Assembly: GCA_036388595.1 (NCBI GenBank)
Contig: DASVRN010000269.1
Span: 1,628 to 65,627 of the forward strand
Length of the DNA stretch: 64,000 bases
Direction: 5' to 3'
Source: Chloroflexia bacterium
Lineage (GTDB): Bacteria; Chloroflexota; Chloroflexia; QHBQ01; JADMIH01
Numbering within the stretch: position 1 is the first letter of the stretch; each line of letters begins with the position of its first letter. The notes beneath the pieces are model-generated. The model ran no database searches and had not been told where the DNA came from. It saw only the letters and a program-made list of their open reading frames with translations. Both the position numbers and the translations under genes were made by a program. This document shows positions 1,097-62,919 of the stretch, piece by piece.

Positions 1097-1235
1097 TTCC
1101 TGCTCCTGATACACAAAAAGGATACGCGGAAGCAAAAGCTTCCATCGCCGTGCGCCATTGAGCAGGAAGTGAGAGGCCAGGAAAAGGCATCCGGCAAGTT
1201 CATTTTACCACGAGTCGTACAGGCACGCTAGGGGA

Positions 1236-1418
1236 GGACGATGGACGATGGACGATGGACGATGGACGATGGACGATGGTAGGAGACGAAAACGCCAAGA
1301 CGCAAAGGACGCGCAGAGATTAGGGTTGTTTGGGAAGGGTGCTATCTTCTACTTGGTCCTCAGTCCTCAGACCTCAGTCCTCATCACTCCTATCGTCCAT
1401 CGTCCATCGTCCGTCGTC
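1236..1418. repeat. MITE-like intergenic element, copy A: (GATGGAC)n heptamer run at left end, (GTCCATC)n at right end, conserved internal core
   Basis: Seen directly: gacgatggacgatggacgatggacgatgg...ggagacgaaaacgccaagacgcaaaggacg...ctcatcactcctatcgtccatcgtccatcgtcc; second copy at 15544-15703. Confidence 0.6.
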
Positions 1419-3055: not shown

Positions 3056-4648
3056 ATGAACTCGATTGGCTTCGTAGTGGCCTGGATTGCCGGTTGTACG
3101 GCCGGACTGGTGCTGCATCTCTCGCGACCGGAGGGGCTGGACAAGACGTTCGGCACCTGGGTGCTAGGTCTCGCTGCCCTGGCGGTTATACCCCTGGCGT
3201 TGGGCTGGCGGGAGAAACGCCTGCGCTGGGCCGGGTTGTGGCTCCTTGCGTTACTGGCAGGTGCCGGTCGTACCCTGCTCATACATTCCCCGGCCGGACC
3301 GAGCGATCTTGCGTATTACAACGGCACCGAGGACTCGGCGCACGTGCGAATCACAGCAATCGTGAGCGCCGAACCAGTCTATCGGGATCGCTCCCAACGG
3401 CTGAGACTTTCCGCTAAATCCCTTGTCCGCGAGGGCGACAGCACCGCGGTGCCGGTCTCAGGGGATATGCTGACTCTCTTGCCCCGTTACCCTACCTACT
3501 ATGTGGGCGAGCAGCTTACCCTCTCGGGCAAGCTAACGGTACCCCCCCAGGTTGAGGACTTCGATTACGCAAGCTACCTAGCGCGCCAGGGCGTGTACTC
3601 GTATATGCTGTTCCCGGCGGTAATCGACCGTCGCGCAGGCACTGACGGCGGGCTGCTTGGGCCAATCTCCTTCACCCGTAATGCGGTGCGGCAGGCGTTG
3701 CGAGAGGGCTTGCCGGAGCCACAGGCCGCCCTCGTGATAGGCGTCGTCACCGGGGACCGGACCGGCATCCCCGAAGAATTGCAGGAAGCATTTACCAGGA
3801 GCGGCACGAGCCACATCCTAGCTATTTCAGGGCAAAACATTTCGATGCTCGTCGGCCTCGTATTCCTGGTCTACGGCGGGAAAGAGAGGCGAAAGATGCC
3901 ACTCTGGCTGCTGGGGACCGTGCTGGCGCTGCTGGCAGCCTACACCGTCTTCACCGGCGCGACACCTGCCGTGGTGAGAGCCTCGGTGATGAGTGCCGTG
4001 TTGCTGGCGTCGCAGGTGGCGGGCAGGCGGTTCGATCCAATTTCGGCGCTGGCGGTATCGGCAGCCTTGATGTCGGTGGTGGACCCGGACCTGCTGCTCG
4101 ATGTGGGATTCCTGCTGAGTTTCGCCGCGATGGTTGGCTTGGTGCAGATTGCTCCATTGGTCTTGAGGGTGCTGGACAAAGCGAAGGTGCCGCAACTCCT
4201 GGGCGTACCTCTATCCGCGAGCTTAGGGGCGCAACTGAGCACCGCGCCTCTAATACTCCTCTTCACCGGGCGTTTCTCGACAGTGTCGCCGCTGGCTACT
4301 CTCACCACGGAGTTCATGCTGCTACCGCTCATGCTCGCGGGTATCGCCGGAGGTCTTGCGGGCGCAATGTTCGGGCAGGTAGGCTCTCTGGTGTCATTGT
4401 TAGCCTGGCCTCCCGCTACCTGGATGATCGAGTCGGTACGTTGGTGGGCGAGCCTGCCCGCTGCTTCGTTGGAGGTCGGGGAGGTAGGTCTGCCGTGGGT
4501 TGTGGGCTATTACCTGCTGGTGGCGCTCTGCATCTGGTGGTTGCGCGAAGGACGGCTCCGCTTCAAGATACGCCCTCGCGAGTTGGCACTTGCGGCGGGC
4601 GCGGTAACTGTGTGGACCCTGTTCCTGGCCCTTCTAGTGAGTCCCTAA
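3056..4648 (+). CDS. comEC: ComEC/Rec2-family DNA internalization channel protein (DUF4131 plus competence domain; no C-terminal metallo-beta-lactamase domain)
   Basis: Polytopic protein; conserved competence-domain motif TRSGTSHILAISGQNISMLVGL and OB-like N region typical of ComEC. Confidence 0.7.
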   Translation: MNSIGFVVAWIAGCTAGLVLHLSRPEGLDKTFGTWVLGLAALAVIPLALGWREKRLRWAGLWLLALLAGAGRTLLIHSPAGPSDLAYYNGTEDSAHVRITAIVSAEPVYRDRSQRLRLSAKSLVREGDSTAVPVSGDMLTLLPRYPTYYVGEQLTLSGKLTVPPQVEDFDYASYLARQGVYSYMLFPAVIDRRAGTDGGLLGPISFTRNAVRQALREGLPEPQAALVIGVVTGDRTGIPEELQEAFTRSGTSHILAISGQNISMLVGLVFLVYGGKERRKMPLWLLGTVLALLAAYTVFTGATPAVVRASVMSAVLLASQVAGRRFDPISALAVSAALMSVVDPDLLLDVGFLLSFAAMVGLVQIAPLVLRVLDKAKVPQLLGVPLSASLGAQLSTAPLILLFTGRFSTVSPLATLTTEFMLLPLMLAGIAGGLAGAMFGQVGSLVSLLAWPPATWMIESVRWWASLPAASLEVGEVGLPWVVGYYLLVALCIWWLREGRLRFKIRPRELALAAGAVTVWTLFLALLVSP

Positions 4649-4836
4649 CGTACCGTTCCATACCGTTTTCGCAAGGAGATTGCACTCCTAATACTTTGGC
4701 GCTACCGGACACAGGACTTAAGGTGCCGCGACTATTACCCAATCGTCTCTTCCCGCCGCCCGTACCATCATGTATAATCCTCAACATAACTCTCTTTACC
4801 GGCTCGTCCCGCACCATTGATGAAGGACTGTCATTG

Positions 4837-10398: not shown

Positions 10399-10461
10399 AG
10401 TGCATAGTCGCAGGGTGAAGGTGCATAGTCGCAGGGTCAAGGTGCGTAGTCGCCAGGAGAC
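10399..10461. repeat. 21-bp tandem repeat x3 (GGTGCATAGTCGCAGGGTGAA-like) immediately 3' of the LysR gene
   Basis: ggcagtgcatagtcgcagggtgaa / ggtgcatagtcgcagggtcaa / ggtgcgtagtcgccaggagac. Confidence 0.6.
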
Positions 10462-10654
10462 GCCCGTCGACTAAAGTCGAGGGCTATACTCTGCAAAGTC
10501 CCCCTTCGGGGACTGGCTTGTTCTAAGGGCTTCTATCGTGGTGAAAATGTAGCTAAAGCAGTCCGCCGCAGGGCGGACTTTGTAATGTGTAGCCCGCGAT
10601 TTCAATCGACGGGCGTCACCCTGTGACTGATACACAATTTCACCGCTTGCTTCC

Positions 10655-10684
10655 TTGACGCTCCCCGCACCCCTCCTGTACTAT
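10655..10684 (+). promoter_or_regulatory. Candidate sigma70-type promoter TTGACG-18-TACTAT for the CoA ligase gene
   Basis: ttgacg ctccccgcacccctcctg tactat, about 30 nt upstream of the TTG start (RBS GGAGGA at 10707-10712). Confidence 0.4.
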
Positions 10685-10716
10685 GGTGGGACCGCATATC
10701 TCCCACGGAGGAAGCC

Positions 10717-12720
10717 TTGAGCGACCGGCGCATCTTGCAGGTTCCCGCCACAATCCAGATTCCATCTGGGATAGTCAGCCCCCGTGCCCGCGAAATTGCC
10801 TGGCGGCCCAGCCCTGTATACCTGGAACGCTCTCGGTTACGGCGGTTCATGCAGCAGCAGGGCGTCGGCTCGTTCGAGGAGCTTTTGCAGCGCTCGGCGG
10901 CGGACCCGGTCTGGTTCTGGGATGCCACGGTCAAGGACCTGGGATTCGAGTTCTACACTCCCTACACTCAGGTGCTGGATACTAGCCGAGGCTGGGAATG
11001 GGCCACCTGGTTCACGGGCGCGCAGTACAACTACGTACACGACGCCCTGGACAAGCACGCCACAGGTGACAACGCCGACCGCCCCGCCATCATCTTCGAG
11101 GGCGAAGAGGGCGTAATTCGTACGCTGACCTATGCGCAGCTACACGCCGAGGTCTGCCGCTTTGCGAACGGCCTGAAGTCGCTCGGCATAGAGAAGGGCG
11201 ACCGCGTAGGGCTGTTCATGCCGTTCACGCCGGAGGTAGCAATCGCCATGCTGGCCTGCGGCAAGCTGGGGGCTATTTTCATCCCGGTCTTTTCGGGCTA
11301 CGCCGCCCCATCTGTGGCCTCACGTCTGAGCGATTGCGGGGCGAAAGTGCTGGTCACATCGGACGGCTTCACCAGGCGTGGCAAGCCTGTAGCTATGAAG
11401 GAAGTCGCGGATGAAGCAGCGGCCGCCGCGCCGTGTGTCGAGAAGGTGGTGGTGCATAGACGGTTGGGGCGCGACGTTCCCTGGAACCCTGAGCGCGACA
11501 TCTGGTGGGACGACCTTCTAGCGACCCAGGACGACCACCTTGAGACCGAGCGCACCGGGGCCGAAGACCTCTACATGATAATTTACACGTCGGGCACCAC
11601 CGGCAAGCCGAAGGGCGCTCAGCACGTCCACTGTGGCTTCCCAATCAAGGGCGCGCAGGACATGGCCCACTGCTTCGACGTGCAGCCCGGCGACGTCTTC
11701 TTCTGGTTCACCGATATCGGCTGGATGATGGGGCCGTGGGCAATCAGCGGTACGCTCATGCTCGGGGCCACCCTCTTTATGTACGACGGCACGCCCGACT
11801 CCCCCGGACCCGACCGCGTTTGGGCCATGATCGAGCGGCACCGCATCACGCACCTGGGCATCTCGCCCACTGCCATACGCTCCCTCATGGCGCAGGGCGA
11901 CGAGTGGGTGGACAAGCACGACCTGTCTTCGCTGCTGTTCCTGGGGTCTACGGGCGAGCCGTGGAACCCCGACCCCTGGTGGTGGTACTTCCGCAAGATC
12001 GGCGGGAGCCGCTGCCCCATAATCAACTATTCGGGCGGCACCGAGATTTCGGGCGGCATCCTGTCCTGCATCCCGCTTCTGCCCATCAAGCCTTCCTCCT
12101 TCAACTCCCCCGTGCCCGGCATGGCTGCCGACGTTGTGAGCGACACCGGGGAGCCTGTGAGGGGCGCGGTGGGCGAACTGGCGATACGCGGCCCCTGGCC
12201 CGGCATGACGCGTGGCTTCTGGGGCGACCAGGAACGCTACATCGACACCTATTTCTCTAGGATACCAGGGCTGTGGGTGCATGGCGACTGGGCTCAAATT
12301 GACGAACACGGCTACTGGTACATCCTGGGCCGCTCCGACGACACCATCAAGGTGGCAGGCAAGCGACTGGGTCCGGCGGAAGTAGAGTCGGCCGCGGTGA
12401 GCCACTCCCATGTGCGTGAGGCGGCGGCGATAGGGGTGCCGGACGAATTGAAGGGCGAGTCGGTGGTGGTGTTCGCCGTGCTCAGGCCCAACGTCGAGCA
12501 GTCGGACGCGCTACGGGGGGAGATAGCTGCGGCCATAGTGGGGCAGCTTGGCAAGAGTCTTGCACCCAAGAAGGTGCTGTTCGTGAGCGACTTGCCCAAG
12601 ACACGCAACGCCAAGATCATGCGCCGCGTCATACGCGCCCGCTACCTGAACGAGACCCTGGGCGATATTTCCTCTCTTGAGAACCCGGCGGCGGTGGAGG
12701 AGATAGCCAACGCCCGGTGA
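10717..12720 (+). CDS. AMP-forming acyl-CoA synthetase of the acetyl-CoA/acetoacetyl-CoA synthetase family (ACAS_N plus AMP-binding domains); TTG start
   Basis: DPVWFWD N-domain, IIYTSGTTGKPKG P-loop, GWMMGPW, YSGGTEISGG, DDTIKVAGKRL motifs. Confidence 0.75.
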   Translation: MSDRRILQVPATIQIPSGIVSPRAREIAWRPSPVYLERSRLRRFMQQQGVGSFEELLQRSAADPVWFWDATVKDLGFEFYTPYTQVLDTSRGWEWATWFTGAQYNYVHDALDKHATGDNADRPAIIFEGEEGVIRTLTYAQLHAEVCRFANGLKSLGIEKGDRVGLFMPFTPEVAIAMLACGKLGAIFIPVFSGYAAPSVASRLSDCGAKVLVTSDGFTRRGKPVAMKEVADEAAAAAPCVEKVVVHRRLGRDVPWNPERDIWWDDLLATQDDHLETERTGAEDLYMIIYTSGTTGKPKGAQHVHCGFPIKGAQDMAHCFDVQPGDVFFWFTDIGWMMGPWAISGTLMLGATLFMYDGTPDSPGPDRVWAMIERHRITHLGISPTAIRSLMAQGDEWVDKHDLSSLLFLGSTGEPWNPDPWWWYFRKIGGSRCPIINYSGGTEISGGILSCIPLLPIKPSSFNSPVPGMAADVVSDTGEPVRGAVGELAIRGPWPGMTRGFWGDQERYIDTYFSRIPGLWVHGDWAQIDEHGYWYILGRSDDTIKVAGKRLGPAEVESAAVSHSHVREAAAIGVPDELKGESVVVFAVLRPNVEQSDALRGEIAAAIVGQLGKSLAPKKVLFVSDLPKTRNAKIMRRVIRARYLNETLGDISSLENPAAVEEIANAR

Positions 12721-13709: not shown

Positions 13710-14042
13710 TTGCTTACAAGTGAGGAAGTGCGCCACGTCGCCATGCTGGCCCGGCTGGGCTTGTCGGACGAGGAAGTGGAGACGCTACGGAGCCAGCTAG
13801 GGCAGGTGCTGGAATACATCGAGATACTGCAAGGGGTAGATACCTCGGCTGTGGCCCCCACCGCGCAGGTGCTGTCACACGTGAACGTGGTGCGCCCCGA
13901 TAGCTCCAGGCCGTCGCTACCCCCCGGTGAGGCCCTGGTGAACGCCCCCGGCCGCGAAGGCGAGTTCTTCCGCGTGCCTGCCGTGATGGAGGACTTCGAG
14001 GCAGGGAGCACGGGCGGTGGGACCGGAGGCGGCGATGAATAG
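13710..14042 (+). CDS. gatC: Asp/Glu-tRNA amidotransferase subunit C (TTG start, RBS AGGAGA)
   Basis: VRHVAMLARLGLSDEEVETLRSQLGQVLEYIEILQGVDTSAVAPT is the GatC signature. Confidence 0.8.
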   Translation: MLTSEEVRHVAMLARLGLSDEEVETLRSQLGQVLEYIEILQGVDTSAVAPTAQVLSHVNVVRPDSSRPSLPPGEALVNAPGREGEFFRVPAVMEDFEAGSTGGGTGGGDE

Positions 14043-15543
14043 CGCAGTTGGCAGCGAGTCGCTGGCGTTCCTCACCATCCACGAAGCCCGCGACCTGCTG
14101 GACGGAGGGCAGGTCTCCTCAGTGGAGTTGACGGAAGCGGCCCTGGCCCAAATCGATAGCCACGAAGAGCAGGTCCACGCGTTCGTGTCCGTCACCCGAG
14201 AGCGCGCCCTGGAAGCCGCCCACGACTTCGACCGCCGTAGGGCTTCGGGCGGAGGGCCACGCTCCACCCTGGACGGCGTCCCAATGAGCCTCAAGGACGT
14301 GCTGATTACCAGGGATGTGCCTACGACGTGCGGTTCGCGCCACCTTGAGAACTTTTCCCCTCCATTCGACGGCACGGTGCCCGCCAGGCTCATGGAAGCA
14401 GGGGCGGTGCTGCTCGGAAAGAACAATTGCGACGAGTTTGCGATGGGTTCTTCCACGGAGAACTCGGCGTGGGGCGTGAGCCGCAACCCGTGGGACACGT
14501 CGCGCGTGCCGGGCGGCTCCAGCGGAGGGTCGGCGGCGGCCGTGGCGGCAGGCATGGGCCACTACTCGCTCGGCACCGACACCGGCGGGAGCGTGCGCCA
14601 ACCGGCTTCCTTGTGCGGCCTGACCGGGCTAAAGCCAACGTATGGGAGGGTGTCCCGCTACGGCCTGGTGGCCTTCGCTTCCTCTCTCGACCAGATCGGC
14701 CCCTTCACGCGGGACGCTATGGACGCGGCTCTGGTGCTGGAACTCATCGCGGGCCAAGACCCATGCGACTCAACTTCGCAGCCGGTGGAGGTGCCCAGCT
14801 ACAGCACAATCCTTCGCGAGAGCGGAGAATCCCTCAATGGCGTTAGAGTCGGTGTGCGGCGCGGGGCTTTGGATGCTGCGAGTGGCTCAGATGGAGGTCT
14901 AAATCCAGAAGTGGCGGCTGTGGTGCAGTCGGCGGTCACGCAGTTGACGGAGCTTGGTGCCGAGTTGCGCGAGATAGATTTACCCAGCCTCGACTACGCA
15001 CTGGCGGCTTACTACATCATCGCGCCCGCCGAAGCAAGTTCTAATCTTGCTCGCTACGATGGCATGAAGTACGGCTACCGCGATCCAGAGGCACGAAACG
15101 CGGTCAACTCCATGCTGGCAACCCGCGAATACGGCTTCGGACCGGAAGTCAAGCGGCGCATCATGCTAGGCACCTACGCCCTGAGCGCGGGCTACTATGA
15201 GGCGTTCTACAAGAAGGCGCAGCAGGTCCGCACACTGGTGGCCCAGGACTTCAAGCGCGCCTATGAGGACGTGGACGTCATATTGGACCCCACCTCCCCC
15301 ACGGTGGCCTTCAGGATTGGCGAGAAGCTAGACGACCCGCTGGCGATGTACCTCACCGACATCTACACCGTACCGGCCAACCTGGCGGGCGTGCCGGGCG
15401 TCTCGATCCCCTGCGGCTTCTCGGACGGCCTGCCCATTGGCCTGCAAATCCTCGGCAGGCACTTCGATGAAGCTACCATCCTGCGAGTGGCCCACGCCTA
15501 CCAGCAGGTGACCGATTGGCACAGGCAGACACCACGACTTTAG
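14035..15543 (+). CDS. gatA: Glutamyl-tRNA(Gln) amidotransferase subunit A (amidase signature family); start ATG 14035 overlapping the gatC stop
   Basis: GGSSGGSAAAVAAG amidase signature, KDVLITRDVPTTCGSR, LGTDTGGSVRQPAS. Confidence 0.85.
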   Translation: MNSAVGSESLAFLTIHEARDLLDGGQVSSVELTEAALAQIDSHEEQVHAFVSVTRERALEAAHDFDRRRASGGGPRSTLDGVPMSLKDVLITRDVPTTCGSRHLENFSPPFDGTVPARLMEAGAVLLGKNNCDEFAMGSSTENSAWGVSRNPWDTSRVPGGSSGGSAAAVAAGMGHYSLGTDTGGSVRQPASLCGLTGLKPTYGRVSRYGLVAFASSLDQIGPFTRDAMDAALVLELIAGQDPCDSTSQPVEVPSYSTILRESGESLNGVRVGVRRGALDAASGSDGGLNPEVAAVVQSAVTQLTELGAELREIDLPSLDYALAAYYIIAPAEASSNLARYDGMKYGYRDPEARNAVNSMLATREYGFGPEVKRRIMLGTYALSAGYYEAFYKKAQQVRTLVAQDFKRAYEDVDVILDPTSPTVAFRIGEKLDDPLAMYLTDIYTVPANLAGVPGVSIPCGFSDGLPIGLQILGRHFDEATILRVAHAYQQVTDWHRQTPRL

Positions 15544-15703
15544 GATGATGGACGACGGACGATAGACGATAGGAGACGGAACCGCCAGGACGCCAAGGAC
15601 GTAAAGTGCGCGCCAAGTGGATGAAGGGTAGGTAGCAGCACTCTACCTACCCACTACTCAGCCCTCATTCCTCATCACTCCCATCGTCCATCGTCCATCG
15701 TCC
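15544..15703. repeat. MITE-like element copy B, same family as 1236-1418 (GATGGAC-type heptamers at left, GTCCATC x3 at right, shared core GATAGGAGACGgAAcCGCCAgGACGCcAAGGACG)
   Basis: Direct comparison with copy A; the internal segment differs and is itself palindromic (gggtaggtag...ctacctaccc). Confidence 0.6.
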
Positions 15704-15776
15704 AAATCGGGTGCAAAACCACGGCGCGCAACCCCATTTGCTATATACTCTCTTTCGTGCCGGAGTCGAGGGAGAT

Positions 15777-16220
15777 ATGAGCGTCGTATTCAAGCTGCCC
15801 ACAGGTAGGAACAGGTCGTTGTCCACCACCGCTATCTCGGTTGTGCTGGGGCTGTTTGCCTTGCTGTTCCTCGTGCGCTTCGGACAGGAGCTACTGCTGG
15901 AACACGATCTGAACGCCAGGGCAGCAGCGCAACGCCGCGCCAACTCAGCCCTGCGGGACGACAACACCCGGCTGCGAGCCAGCCTCCAATACTTCCAGTC
16001 TACCAAGTACATCGAGCAGCGCGCCCGCGAAGACCTCAACCTGCGTCGGGCCGACGAGGAAGTGCTCATCCCGGTCGGGTTGGATGCTACACTTGCGGGT
16101 GGGCTGGGAGGCACTATGGGGCAGGGTGCGGAGGAGAACGCGACCCGGCAAGAACCGTCGAACTGGGAGAAATGGTTCGGGCTTTTCACCCCCGCAAAGT
16201 CCGCCGACCAGTTTCCTTGA
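15777..16220 (+). CDS. FtsB/DivIC-like septum-formation initiator family protein (single TM plus coiled coil); start at MSVVFK with RBS GGAG
   Basis: N-terminal TM (ISVVLGLFALLFLV) followed by a heptad-rich segment; size and architecture fit the family. Confidence 0.45.
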   Translation: MSVVFKLPTGRNRSLSTTAISVVLGLFALLFLVRFGQELLLEHDLNARAAAQRRANSALRDDNTRLRASLQYFQSTKYIEQRAREDLNLRRADEEVLIPVGLDATLAGGLGGTMGQGAEENATRQEPSNWEKWFGLFTPAKSADQFP

Positions 16221-16256: not shown

Positions 16257-16331
16257 CGCGGGGTGGAGCAGTGGAAGCTCGTTGGGCTCATAACCCAAAG
16301 GCCGTAGGTTCGAATCCTACCCCCGCTACCA
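16257..16331 (+). tRNA. Initiator tRNA-fMet (anticodon CAT), CCA encoded
   Basis: About 85% identical to E. coli tRNA-fMet by eye: CGCGGGGTGGAGCAG...GGGCTCATAACCC...GGTTCGAATCC...CCCCGC; three G:C pairs closing the anticodon stem; C1:U72 mismatch. Confidence 0.9.
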
Positions 16332-18449: not shown

Positions 18450-18521
18450 TGGCGAGGTAGCTCAGTGGCAGAGCAGGGGACTCATAAGCCCTTGGTCGGC
18501 AGTTCAAATCTGCCCCTCGCC
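18450..18521 (+). tRNA. tRNA with CAU anticodon, most likely tRNA-Ile2 (lysidine-modified, k2CAU) rather than elongator Met; CCA not encoded
   Basis: GGCGAGGTAGCTCAGTGGCAGAGCAGGGGACTCATAAGCCCTTGGTCGGCAGTTCAAATCTGCCCCTCGCCA closely resembles E. coli ileX (D arm and TTGGTCG..GGTTCAA.TC T region); it sits immediately 5' of tilS. Confidence 0.8.
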
Positions 18522-18641
18522 ACTTTTGTATTTAAGCCTCCTATACCGCACCCGCCTGCGCAGTCCTCCTCTTGCCCCGGTGCGGCACTCTTCTACTGAA
18601 CATCAACTCCCCTAAGCATTCGTGAGAGGCCGATAGCACTA

Positions 18642-62684: not shown

Positions 62685-62919
62685 TATCTCATAAACCTGG
62701 AGTCTGAGAAGAGAACCCAAAGCCCCACCCTGTCATTTCGAACGTAGTGAGAAATCTCGTCCCTCAGCACCCATGTCTCACCTTTCTCTTGGTTAATCTG
62801 TACTACAACGTACCACAAGAAAGCAGTAACATCCTGGTGAAGGACGAGATTTCTCACTACGTTCGAAATGACATAGGGGGGCTTTGCTGCTCGTATTCGG
62901 TCCGGTATTCATGAGATAG
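62685..62919. repeat. Low-GC palindromic element: perfect 31-bp inverted repeat (62732-62762 / 62842-62872) around a 79-bp spacer that is itself partly palindromic, with shorter outer inverted repeats (ctatctcat / atgagatag)
   Basis: GTCATTTCGAACGTAGTGAGAAATCTCGTCC and its exact reverse complement; local GC about 45% against about 65% background. Confidence 0.65.

Follow-up and report, generated by a model that had tools for sequence, protein, structure and literature searches.

The heptamer element and its neighbouring genes

We analysed 64,000 nucleotides of DNA from a Chloroflexia bacterium (contig DASVRN010000269.1; G+C content 62.6%), referred to as the window, with a focus on a 183-bp intergenic element at positions 1236-1418 that is composed largely of tandem heptamers and recurs once more in the window. 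The two occurrences are referred to as copy A and copy B. Along the plus strand, copy A starts with a left arm of 6.3 GGACGAT units (1236-1279; 100% matches in Tandem Repeats Finder, TRF), which was also recovered as arms of inverted repeats (I5/I9/I10). The arm is followed at 1280-1318 by a stem extension, TAGGAG, and a conserved left inner module, GAGACGAAAACGCCAAGACGCAAAGGACGCGCAGAG, made of units of about 9 nt (GRCGCMAAG), and then by a less conserved central segment (1319-1355; GATTAGGRTTGTTTGG, then variable), which forms the apex of the hairpin according to the comparison of copies and the predicted fold. The right half contains an inner array of four GTCCTCA units (1356-1383; TRF) and, at 1384-1418, TCACTCCT and the right arm, an array of 3.9 ATCGTCC units with 95% matches that itself covers 1392-1418 (TRF). 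The CTCCTA in TCACTCCT pairs with the TAGGAG of the left side, and the final degenerate unit, GTCGTCA, holds the minus-strand stop codon of the upstream gene.

With a length of 27-32 nt, the two arms are 91-96% complementary (I5/I9) and give a stem of about 30 bp, and together with the TRF arrays they bear out a preliminary description of this DNA, which had reported heptamer arrays with a reverse-complementary far end at 1236-1418. The very long hairpin expected in that description was also recovered when folding was checked, with z scores for RNA between -6.4 and -7.3 over both copies and both strands. For copy A, the minimum free energy of the RNA was -96.6 kcal/mol on the plus strand (z = -7.3) and -87.3 kcal/mol on the minus strand (z = -6.8), and the DNA fold had a z score of -6.6; the two strands of copy B yielded RNA z scores of -6.4 and -7.1. 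The 14-mer GATGGACGATGGAC was found 17 times in the window when up to 3 mismatches were allowed, as compared to 5.3 +/- 2.2 times in shuffled sequences, and all occurrences fell within copies A and B except for three matches with 2-3 mismatches. An open reading frame (ORF) at 1248-1508 that runs through the array was considered as a possible coding repeat and rejected as spurious; the arrays lie outside conserved genes.

Copy A is located between two minus-strand genes. The upstream gene (1417-2877) encodes a protein of 486 amino acids with a weak YflT/ActD-like N-terminus and has orthologues at the related loci L130/L131 and L134; its match to PF11181 (E = 0.0016) is weaker than the Pfam cut-off, such that the label "YflT-like" that it had been given is a weak one. 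The downstream gene (686-1096) encodes a repressor of the BlaI/MecI/CopY family (PF03965, E = 2.6e-25; protein P0121 is 100% identical). An earlier placement of the element between two stop codons was half right: the TGA of the upstream gene at 1417-1419 does overlap the last heptamer, but the BlaI-family gene, with its stop codon at 686-688, turns its start (1096) towards copy A. The genes are thus arranged in tandem rather than convergently, and the element is flanked by the stop codon of one and the promoter region of the other. On the minus strand, the TGA is contained in the first degenerate heptamer of the array, TGACGAC, and the stop codons in the window sit in the first degenerate unit at both copies (TGAcgac at copy A, taGGATGAT at copy B).

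Copy A stops where a highly conserved block upstream of blaI starts (1097-1235, minus strand). In an alignment with locus L131 this block is about 97% identical, while the loci are 83% identical overall, and it is also kept in L132-L134. It contains TGGTAAAAT (plus-strand positions 1202-1210), which resembles an extended -10 box, and may serve as the blaI promoter. A strict sigma-70 scan found no site in the block; this box and the box TGCTATATACT mentioned below were read by eye from alignments and were not called by the promoter scan.

Copy B had been reported at 15544-15703 as a second copy sharing the core; we found it at 15543-15704 on the plus strand, with a mean column identity of 80% to copy A. 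Its left arm consists of the degenerate units GGATGAT, GGACGAC, GGACGAT and AGACGAT (15543-15572) and begins inside the TAG stop codon of gatA. The core region (15573-15677) starts with GAGACGGAACCGCCAGGACGCCAAGGACG, identified by a pattern match at 15573, has a small hairpin at its apex (15626-15652) and ends with CTCAGCCCTCATTCCTCATCACTCC, after which the right arm contains 3.4 ATCGTCC units with 100% matches (15678-15704; TRF). An nhmmer profile of the core matched copy A at 1276-1356 (E = 1e-15) and copy B at 15566-15638 (E = 5e-16), and detected no additional degenerate copies elsewhere in the window.

The stop codon of gatA (14035-15543, plus strand) adjoins copy B. The C-terminal tail of GatA varies among all close relatives, with the last 5-15 residues being unlike in every one of them (window 15500-15543 and L125-L129); the proteins end in RQTPRL, RRTPSLAEE, PADLIE, CSPPT or GGVQNQ. 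Since the first degenerate heptamer supplies the stop codon where the element is present, such elements reshape the C-termini of adjacent proteins. On the other side of copy B is a conserved region (15705-15776, plus strand; GGGTGCAAAACCAC...TGCTATATACT at 15739-15749) upstream of a divIC/ftsB-like gene (15777-16220, plus strand; PF04977), and the synteny of this gene is preserved in L125-L129. The alignment indicates that relatives retain the region with or without the element, and the region may function as the divIC promoter.

A dispersed repeat family in Chloroflexia

We scanned one genome per species with three ATCGTCC units as the query, and fetched loci for comparison. Three-unit arrays were found in at least 116 stretches, where far less than one would be expected by chance. 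Among the matches listed, at least 68 of the 116 stretches belonged to Chloroflexota, and other phyla included Bacteroidota, Acidobacteriota, Planctomycetota, Verrucomicrobiota, Armatimonadota, Cyanobacteria (a Phormidium) and a few others.

BLAST searches of the window against the fetched loci aligned the whole element (1236-1418) at 77-80% identity in L033, L005, L103, L100 and L039, and the left half only in L050, L049, L051 and L043. The core pattern GAGACGRAAHCGYMARGRCGCHAAG, which matches copy A at 1283, was found at 9 other genome loci. Related copies are present at no fewer than 10 other loci and in at least 3 other metagenome-assembled genomes (MAGs) of Chloroflexia or Chloroflexota (SMAG_U3335, PEA bin11 and PEA bin13), and with the exception of one orthologous pair their flanks are unrelated. 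The best homologues of GatA and BlaI also came from Chloroflexia MAGs in all cases. We checked whether the element was confined to the two window loci, or whether related copies lacked the heptamers, and found neither: unrelated Chloroflexia loci contain full-length relatives in which both the arms and the core are the same, in agreement with the multi-copy element with a conserved core that had been proposed.

From the outer left, the consensus order of the family is 1-7 GGACGAT units, TAGGAG, GACGRAAHCG, three or four GRCGCMAAG units of about 9 nt and CGCGCAAAGATTAGGATTGTTTGG, which is followed to the right by a variable apex, a second heptamer array, TCACTCCY and 3-9 ATCGTCC units. The inner heptamer is GTCCTCA in most copies (3-7 units in L005, L033, L100, L103 and L131) and TAACCAC, TCATAAC or TAACAAC in others, and the signature of the core is GAGACGRAAHCG...GATTAGGATTGTTTGG. 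A metagenome scan with the core pattern matched 6 contigs only, all of them representing a different class without GGACGAT arms. In contigs L119-L124, which are metagenome contigs from the Joint Genome Institute (JGI), the 9-mers are arranged in palindromes, (GRCGCMAAG)n...(CTTKGCGYC)n, bounded by GAGACGG and CCGTCTC and with the purine-rich arm at the 5' side. Since the 9-mers form palindromes of their own in these contigs, the core of the window element, in its left inner module, is one half of another palindromic tandem-repeat element, nested in the heptamer hairpin. As judged from these alignments, the data show copy A to be a member of a dispersed Chloroflexia repeat family that is built of nested tandem repeats. 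The elements are small (160-215 bp), non-coding and dispersed, numbering 2 in the window and at least 10 elsewhere, as is typical of MITEs (miniature transposable elements with inverted repeats).

Turnover at orthologous sites

Comparisons of orthologous sites revealed that the element is turned over quickly among close relatives. At the site of copy A, L131 (from SMAG_U3335; 83% nucleotide identity) contains the same element in the same orientation, aligned throughout, with different numbers of units and with CTTTGCG versus CTTGGCG units. The core has the opposite orientation and a TAACAAC inner array in L133 (93%), extra inner inverted arrays are present in L132, and unrelated sequence takes the place of the element in L134 (about 77%). 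At the site of copy B, between gatA and divIC, L128 (92.9% identical DNA) contains another palindrome, (ACGTAAC)n-core2-(GTTACGT)n, at exactly the position of the window element, between the stop codon (gaaTAAc) and the conserved TCGGGTGCAAAACC...TGCTATATACT block. There is no element at this site in L125, L127 and L129 (79-82% identical).

The loci L100 and L049 (88.5% identical) share an element at the same site, with 1 versus 3 left units and 6 versus 3 right units. All four 9-mers changed together between them, from CAAAG to CCAAG, and L049 has a palindromic element of 190 bp nested at the apex. Unit numbers thus vary between orthologous loci, as expected from slippage, both for this pair and for the window versus L131. 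The changes shown by these alignments comprise gain and loss of units, concerted change of the 9-mers, inversion or exchange of the interior, nested insertion at the apex, and gain, loss or replacement of the whole element between close relatives.

Independent assemblies agree on the sequence of the element. An assembly artefact was considered and rejected, in that the copies are internal to contigs of more than 100 kb and are identical across independent assemblies. In independent assemblies of close relatives, contigs break off inside elements (the end of L118 and the starts of L132 and L133), and many of the homologous BlaI and GatA genes are located on contigs as short as 0.8-4 kb. Short-read assemblies of these Chloroflexia are evidently fragmented by the repeats.

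Inverted heptamer arrays at the ends of genes

The fetched loci contained 380 arrays with a period of 7 and 73 inverted pairs of many unit sequences, many of which have loops of 2-15 nt and no core. Units other than GGACGAT, for which the query did not select, had a density of about 2.4 per 10 kb across the loci from Chloroflexota. Of the 46 GGACGAT pairs, 43 had the purine-rich array as the 5' arm on both strands, as did 24 of the 27 pairs with other units (p = 5e-5); the three exceptions among the GGACGAT pairs are Vicinamibacterales arrays with a near-palindromic unit.

The hairpins are closely associated with stop codons. Forty of 56 facing stop codons were located no more than 10 nt from the edge of the hairpin, and in spacers between tandem genes with at least 40 nt of free space, this applied to 13 of 18 hairpins as compared to an expectation of 1.4. 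Such proximity was far rarer for unpaired arrays, with 25 of 101 located within 10 nt of a stop codon. About half of the cores were sense and half antisense to the abutting gene. For 33 hairpins oriented by the abutting gene, sense and antisense RNA did not differ in folding energy (15 versus 16; Wilcoxon p = 0.78). The presence of the core in either orientation and the equal stability of sense and antisense folds imply that any function would be independent of orientation. Taken together, inverted heptamer-array hairpins form a class that is abundant in Chloroflexota, in which the polarity is fixed and the hairpins strongly favour the position immediately after the stop codon, typically leaving the promoter of the next gene untouched.

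Two further arrangements were seen among the fetched loci. In L108 (4970-5745), (GGACGAT)n and (ATCGTCT/ATCGTCC)n arrays are located on both sides of an EF-P-like gene, such that arrays can bracket whole housekeeping genes and not short cores alone, and different heptamer arrays are concatenated, as in (GGACGAT)(CACGCAT)(TCCGCAC). In the simple hairpins of L020, L068, L079, L080 and L093 one arm is uniformly GGACGAT and the other uniformly ATCGTCT, with a G-T (G-U) pair in every unit, which indicates that the arms were homogenised independently and that perfect complementarity is not kept.

Other features of the window

A second type of palindrome is located at 62718-62886 in the window, with arms of 52 nt that are 90% complementary (TGTCATTTCGAACGTAGTGAGAAATCTCGTCC...GGACGAGATTTCTCACTACGTTCGAAATGACA). 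Its architecture (TGTCAT..GA.CG.AG.GA..ATCT) matches the element nested at the apex in L049 and one inside a heptamer hairpin of Saprospiraceae (L008), and it probably represents a separate, widespread MITE- or REP-like family (REP, repetitive extragenic palindrome). At 10400-10462, three tandem units of 21 bp, GTGCATAGTCGCAGGGTSAAG, run into a palindrome with arms of 57 nt (10448-10504 and 10572-10628) and inner hairpins. This structure is located directly upstream of an acetyl-CoA-synthetase-like gene (10627-12720), and a window-wide scan identified no Rfam family at the gathering score in the region 10400-10628.

Downstream of divIC, two tRNA-Met (CAT) genes (16257-16331 and 18451-18523) are found on either side of a pepF-like gene. 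In a relative with a GatA protein of 89% identity (L125/L126), a PDDEXK_5 nuclease-family gene (4192-4704) is located between divIC and pepF, suggesting a variable spot.

Comparison with known repeats

The preliminary description had set inverted repeats made of heptamer arrays apart from the common bacterial repeat families, which overstated their novelty, given the precedents in Xanthomonas (PMC4692102), in the short tandemly repeated repetitive (STRR) sequences of cyanobacteria (PMC2670836) and in satellites of Chloroflexus (PMC6749651). STRR sequences are tandem 7-bp repeats that form intergenic hairpins in Nostoc and Anabaena, for example between hupS and hupL and upstream of hoxW, and a role in transcript stability or termination was proposed but is unproven (PMC2670836). 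Both window copies consist of what defines STRR sequences and long simple sequence repeats (LSSRs), namely at least three head-to-tail units of 7 nt in an intergenic position (TRF period 7, 3.4-6.3 copies). As in the STRR sequences, the arrays pair into a hairpin near the 3' end of the preceding gene, and filamentous bacteria are involved in both cases. The phylum and the unit sequences are different, however, and neither a conserved core outside the heptamers nor a dispersed composite family is described for STRR sequences in the literature compared. Small dispersed repeats were reportedly observed within cyanobacterial heptamer arrays by Elhai et al. in 2008.

In Xanthomonas, Rehm et al. 2015 (PMC4692102) describe 70-75 convergent inverted pairs of GGGAATC arrays per genome. 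The G-rich (purine-rich) array on the plus strand comes first and that on the minus strand second, such that the G-rich array leads on each strand, which is the same polarity as here. The arrays are mostly intergenic and differ in length from one related genome to another, but keep their type (single or inverted pair). Both window copies likewise consist of close, convergent arrays that share one unit, the purine- or G-rich array being first. They differ in that GGGAATC can form G-quadruplexes and GGACGAT cannot, and no composite core is described for GGGAATC, nor is abutment to stop codons mentioned in the passages compared. In Chloroflexus aurantiacus, scattered heptamer satellites, (GATAGRA)n of Fam_1_14_23, were considered probably transposed (Subirana and Messeguer 2019, PMC6749651). 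These share the phylum and the scattering of one heptamer family through the genome, but the unit is another one, and inverted pairing, hairpins and gene position are not described there. Direct TAACTGA heptamer repeats occur in Beggiatoaceae, Cyanobacteria and Bacteroidetes (MacGregor 2015, PMC4679880). They too represent a single heptamer that is tandem, intergenic and common to distant phyla of mostly filamentous bacteria, as is the cross-phylum GGACGAT, but TAACTGA repeats are direct (with one inverted case) and located just upstream of start codons, whereas the arrays described here are inverted pairs at stop codons.

REP sequences, bacterial interspersed mosaic elements (BIMEs) and hairpin-forming REP doublets (REPINs) are also intergenic palindromes at the 3' ends of genes, often inverted doublets with long hairpins and with hundreds of dispersed copies. 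The REP and BIME sequences of Proteobacteria are 3' stabilisers or attenuators of mRNA. Those located within about 15 nt of a stop codon are said to affect the termination of translation, as reportedly found by Liang, Rudd and Deutscher in 2015. In contrast to the tandem arrays, REP sequences are single imperfect palindromes of 20-40 nt with a fixed sequence. REPINs are tied to REP-associated tyrosine transposase (RAYT) genes, which are IS200/IS605-like (PMC3116915), and no RAYT gene was seen in the fetched loci, which are loci and not whole genomes; the tandem-array architecture is also unlike REP. Bacterial MITEs such as Correia/NEMIS, ERIC, RUP and the cyanobacterial Nezha resemble the element in that they are 100-400 bp long and non-coding, have terminal inverted repeats and form long hairpins in many intergenic copies. 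The arms of copy A are terminal inverted repeats in this sense, though they are tandem arrays of variable length. Unlike the element, MITEs have defined termini derived from an insertion sequence (IS) and target-site duplications of fixed length, neither of which was seen here.

The element resembles the cyanobacterial and Xanthomonas heptamer-repeat hairpins more than a classical miniature transposon. As far as we found, the literature holds no description of a composite with a conserved 9-mer core as a Chloroflexia family, of a 5'-purine polarity across many units, or of abutment to stop codons.

Origin and possible function of the element

We consider the element to be a hairpin-forming composite of simple repeats at the 3' ends of genes that is remodelled by slippage and recombination and probably has a REP- or STRR-like role as a 3' hairpin, to which we assign a probability of about 0.6. 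The changes at orthologous sites suggest that the remodelling would be driven by slippage of replication within arrays, together with recombination or gene conversion, both from one inverted arm to the other and from copy to copy. Spread to new sites would occur by some other route than cut-and-paste transposition with target duplication, such as insertion directed to hairpins, stop codons or gene ends. The element would form the 3' untranslated part of the transcript of the upstream gene, and its stem of more than 30 bp would act irrespective of orientation, as a 3' hairpin barrier against read-through or exonucleases and as an insulator between tandem genes; it might also influence the terminating ribosome. 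By analogy with REP/BIME and cyanobacterial STRR sequences, a 3' hairpin function seems plausible, but it is just as conceivable that the element is selfish or neutral and simply tolerated.

Several observations weigh against this reading. Copies in L100/L049 and L043 are located between divergent gene starts, where a role at the 3' end cannot apply. A terminator scan found no U-tract terminator at either copy and there are no T runs in the flanks past the stems, such that the element is not a canonical intrinsic terminator. A test for asymmetry between G-U and A-C pairs in the 33 oriented hairpins did not point to selection acting on the RNA. The locus counts are samples from the matches listed, with 134 fetched loci in all, and the genes at these loci were predicted with a heuristic caller (stop-to-stop ORFs weighted by GC3-GC2), which reproduces the genes of the window and is not a curated annotation. 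Finally, conserved composite copies at unrelated loci require a mechanism of transfer, which keeps a transposon-like process open.

The preliminary description had suggested such a process in the form of a non-autonomous transposon. In a true MITE, the heptamer arrays would be binding sites for a transposase acting in trans, with a preference for insertion just past stop codons. Terminal inverted repeats, a non-coding length of 160-215 bp and the presence of the core at about 12 unrelated loci in at least 4 genomes are all as expected for a MITE, as are presence and absence at orthologous sites, a strongly non-random placement at stop codons, and the occurrence of two different heptamer palindromes at the exact same site in genomes that are 93% identical, which suggests targeted insertion. 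We nevertheless regard it as unlikely. No recognisable target-site duplication flanks the roughly 12 copies with a core or the roughly 25 simple hairpins that were inspected, a test whose power is limited by the fuzzy array ends, and no duplication was seen when filled and empty orthologous sites were compared for A and B. Each end is an array of between 1 and more than 12 units whose outer units are degenerate, which leaves no defined terminus, and the arms are shared with bacteria of other phyla and are far more common in simple hairpins without a core than in combination with it. No transposase was present between pairs of arrays 0.7-3.4 kb apart, which enclose spermidine-synthase-like, RNA-binding-protein and EF-P-like genes instead. 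There was no autonomous IS with the same ends among the 134 fetched loci, which again are loci and not whole genomes, and BLAST searches of plasmids and phages and a scan of viral contigs yielded no matches to the element. With neither a target duplication, nor a defined terminus, nor a known partner, we have not filed the element as a MITE. Somewhat less probable still, though compatible with the observations, would be a reading in which inverted heptamer arrays are more than debris of slippage and come from a dedicated process that installs and exchanges palindromic modules in a 7-nt register precisely at stop codons, with the purine-rich strand always 5' on both strands and with units such as GGACGAT shared across phyla; this would be a hairpin-targeted mobile or templated repeat system, possibly with a protein that binds in heptamer register, and would shape the 3' ends of genes in Chloroflexota and other, mostly filamentous, bacteria.

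As a further alternative, slippage and fold-back template switching could make palindromic arrays in situ, with no mobility or function and with the likeness among loci being convergent. The unit numbers do differ between arms and between orthologues, there is no strand bias in the stability of the folds, and heptamers are the most over-represented long simple sequence repeats in bacteria, which was ascribed to polymerase slippage (Mrazek 2007, as cited in PMC4679880). However, a core of 60-90 nt that is non-repetitive or made of 9-mers is shared, along with GATTAGGATTGTTTGG, at 75-88% identity by unrelated loci and genomes. This identity cannot be convergent and largely refutes local mutation as the origin of the composite; nor does slippage explain the swap to another heptamer family at one site in genomes of 93% identity, and the 5'-purine polarity and the abutment to stop codons would need an additional cause, all of which makes a purely local origin very improbable. 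An even poorer candidate is a structured RNA gene or cis-regulatory RNA with a functional core, such as a small RNA, a sponge for proteins that bind GGA repeats, or a leader of the downstream gene. It would account for the very strong folding energy, the conserved core and the location upstream of blaI and divIC, and the GGA/GAGGA repeats, as read from the sequence by eye, resemble CsrA-type or anti-Shine-Dalgarno-binding motifs. But Rfam 15 yielded only two tRNAs at gathering scores across the window and only matches at chance level (at most 15 bits) over 1100-1550 when allowing E values of up to 10, and a scan for consensus promoters found none inside or beside either copy. The core is found in both orientations relative to the neighbouring genes, even at one locus (L133 versus the window); an insertion of 190 bp is tolerated in the apex, which is variable; and close relatives lack the element upstream of divIC but keep the divIC promoter region. 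The structured RNA or terminator module of the preliminary description is likewise difficult to reconcile with the missing U-tract and with the equal folding of both strands.

Implications

Copy A is an ordinary member of a class of repeats with clear precedents, and it is the regularities of the class as a whole that merit a genome-wide test. In practical terms, the elements break metagenome assemblies of Chloroflexia and change how adjacent genes end, both in the C-terminal tail and in the stop codon. Should they be only tolerated products of slippage and recombination, this would be a useful but ordinary description of a repeat family. If the regularities hold genome-wide, namely the 5'-purine polarity, an edge at the stop codon and whole modules quickly exchanged at one site, this would suggest that the arrays are more than microsatellite noise. 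Heptamer hairpins would in that case be a general way, common to several phyla, of building the 3' ends of genes, and would offer a tractable case for understanding why 7-base repeats dominate the long simple repeats of bacteria, which has been a question since 2007.

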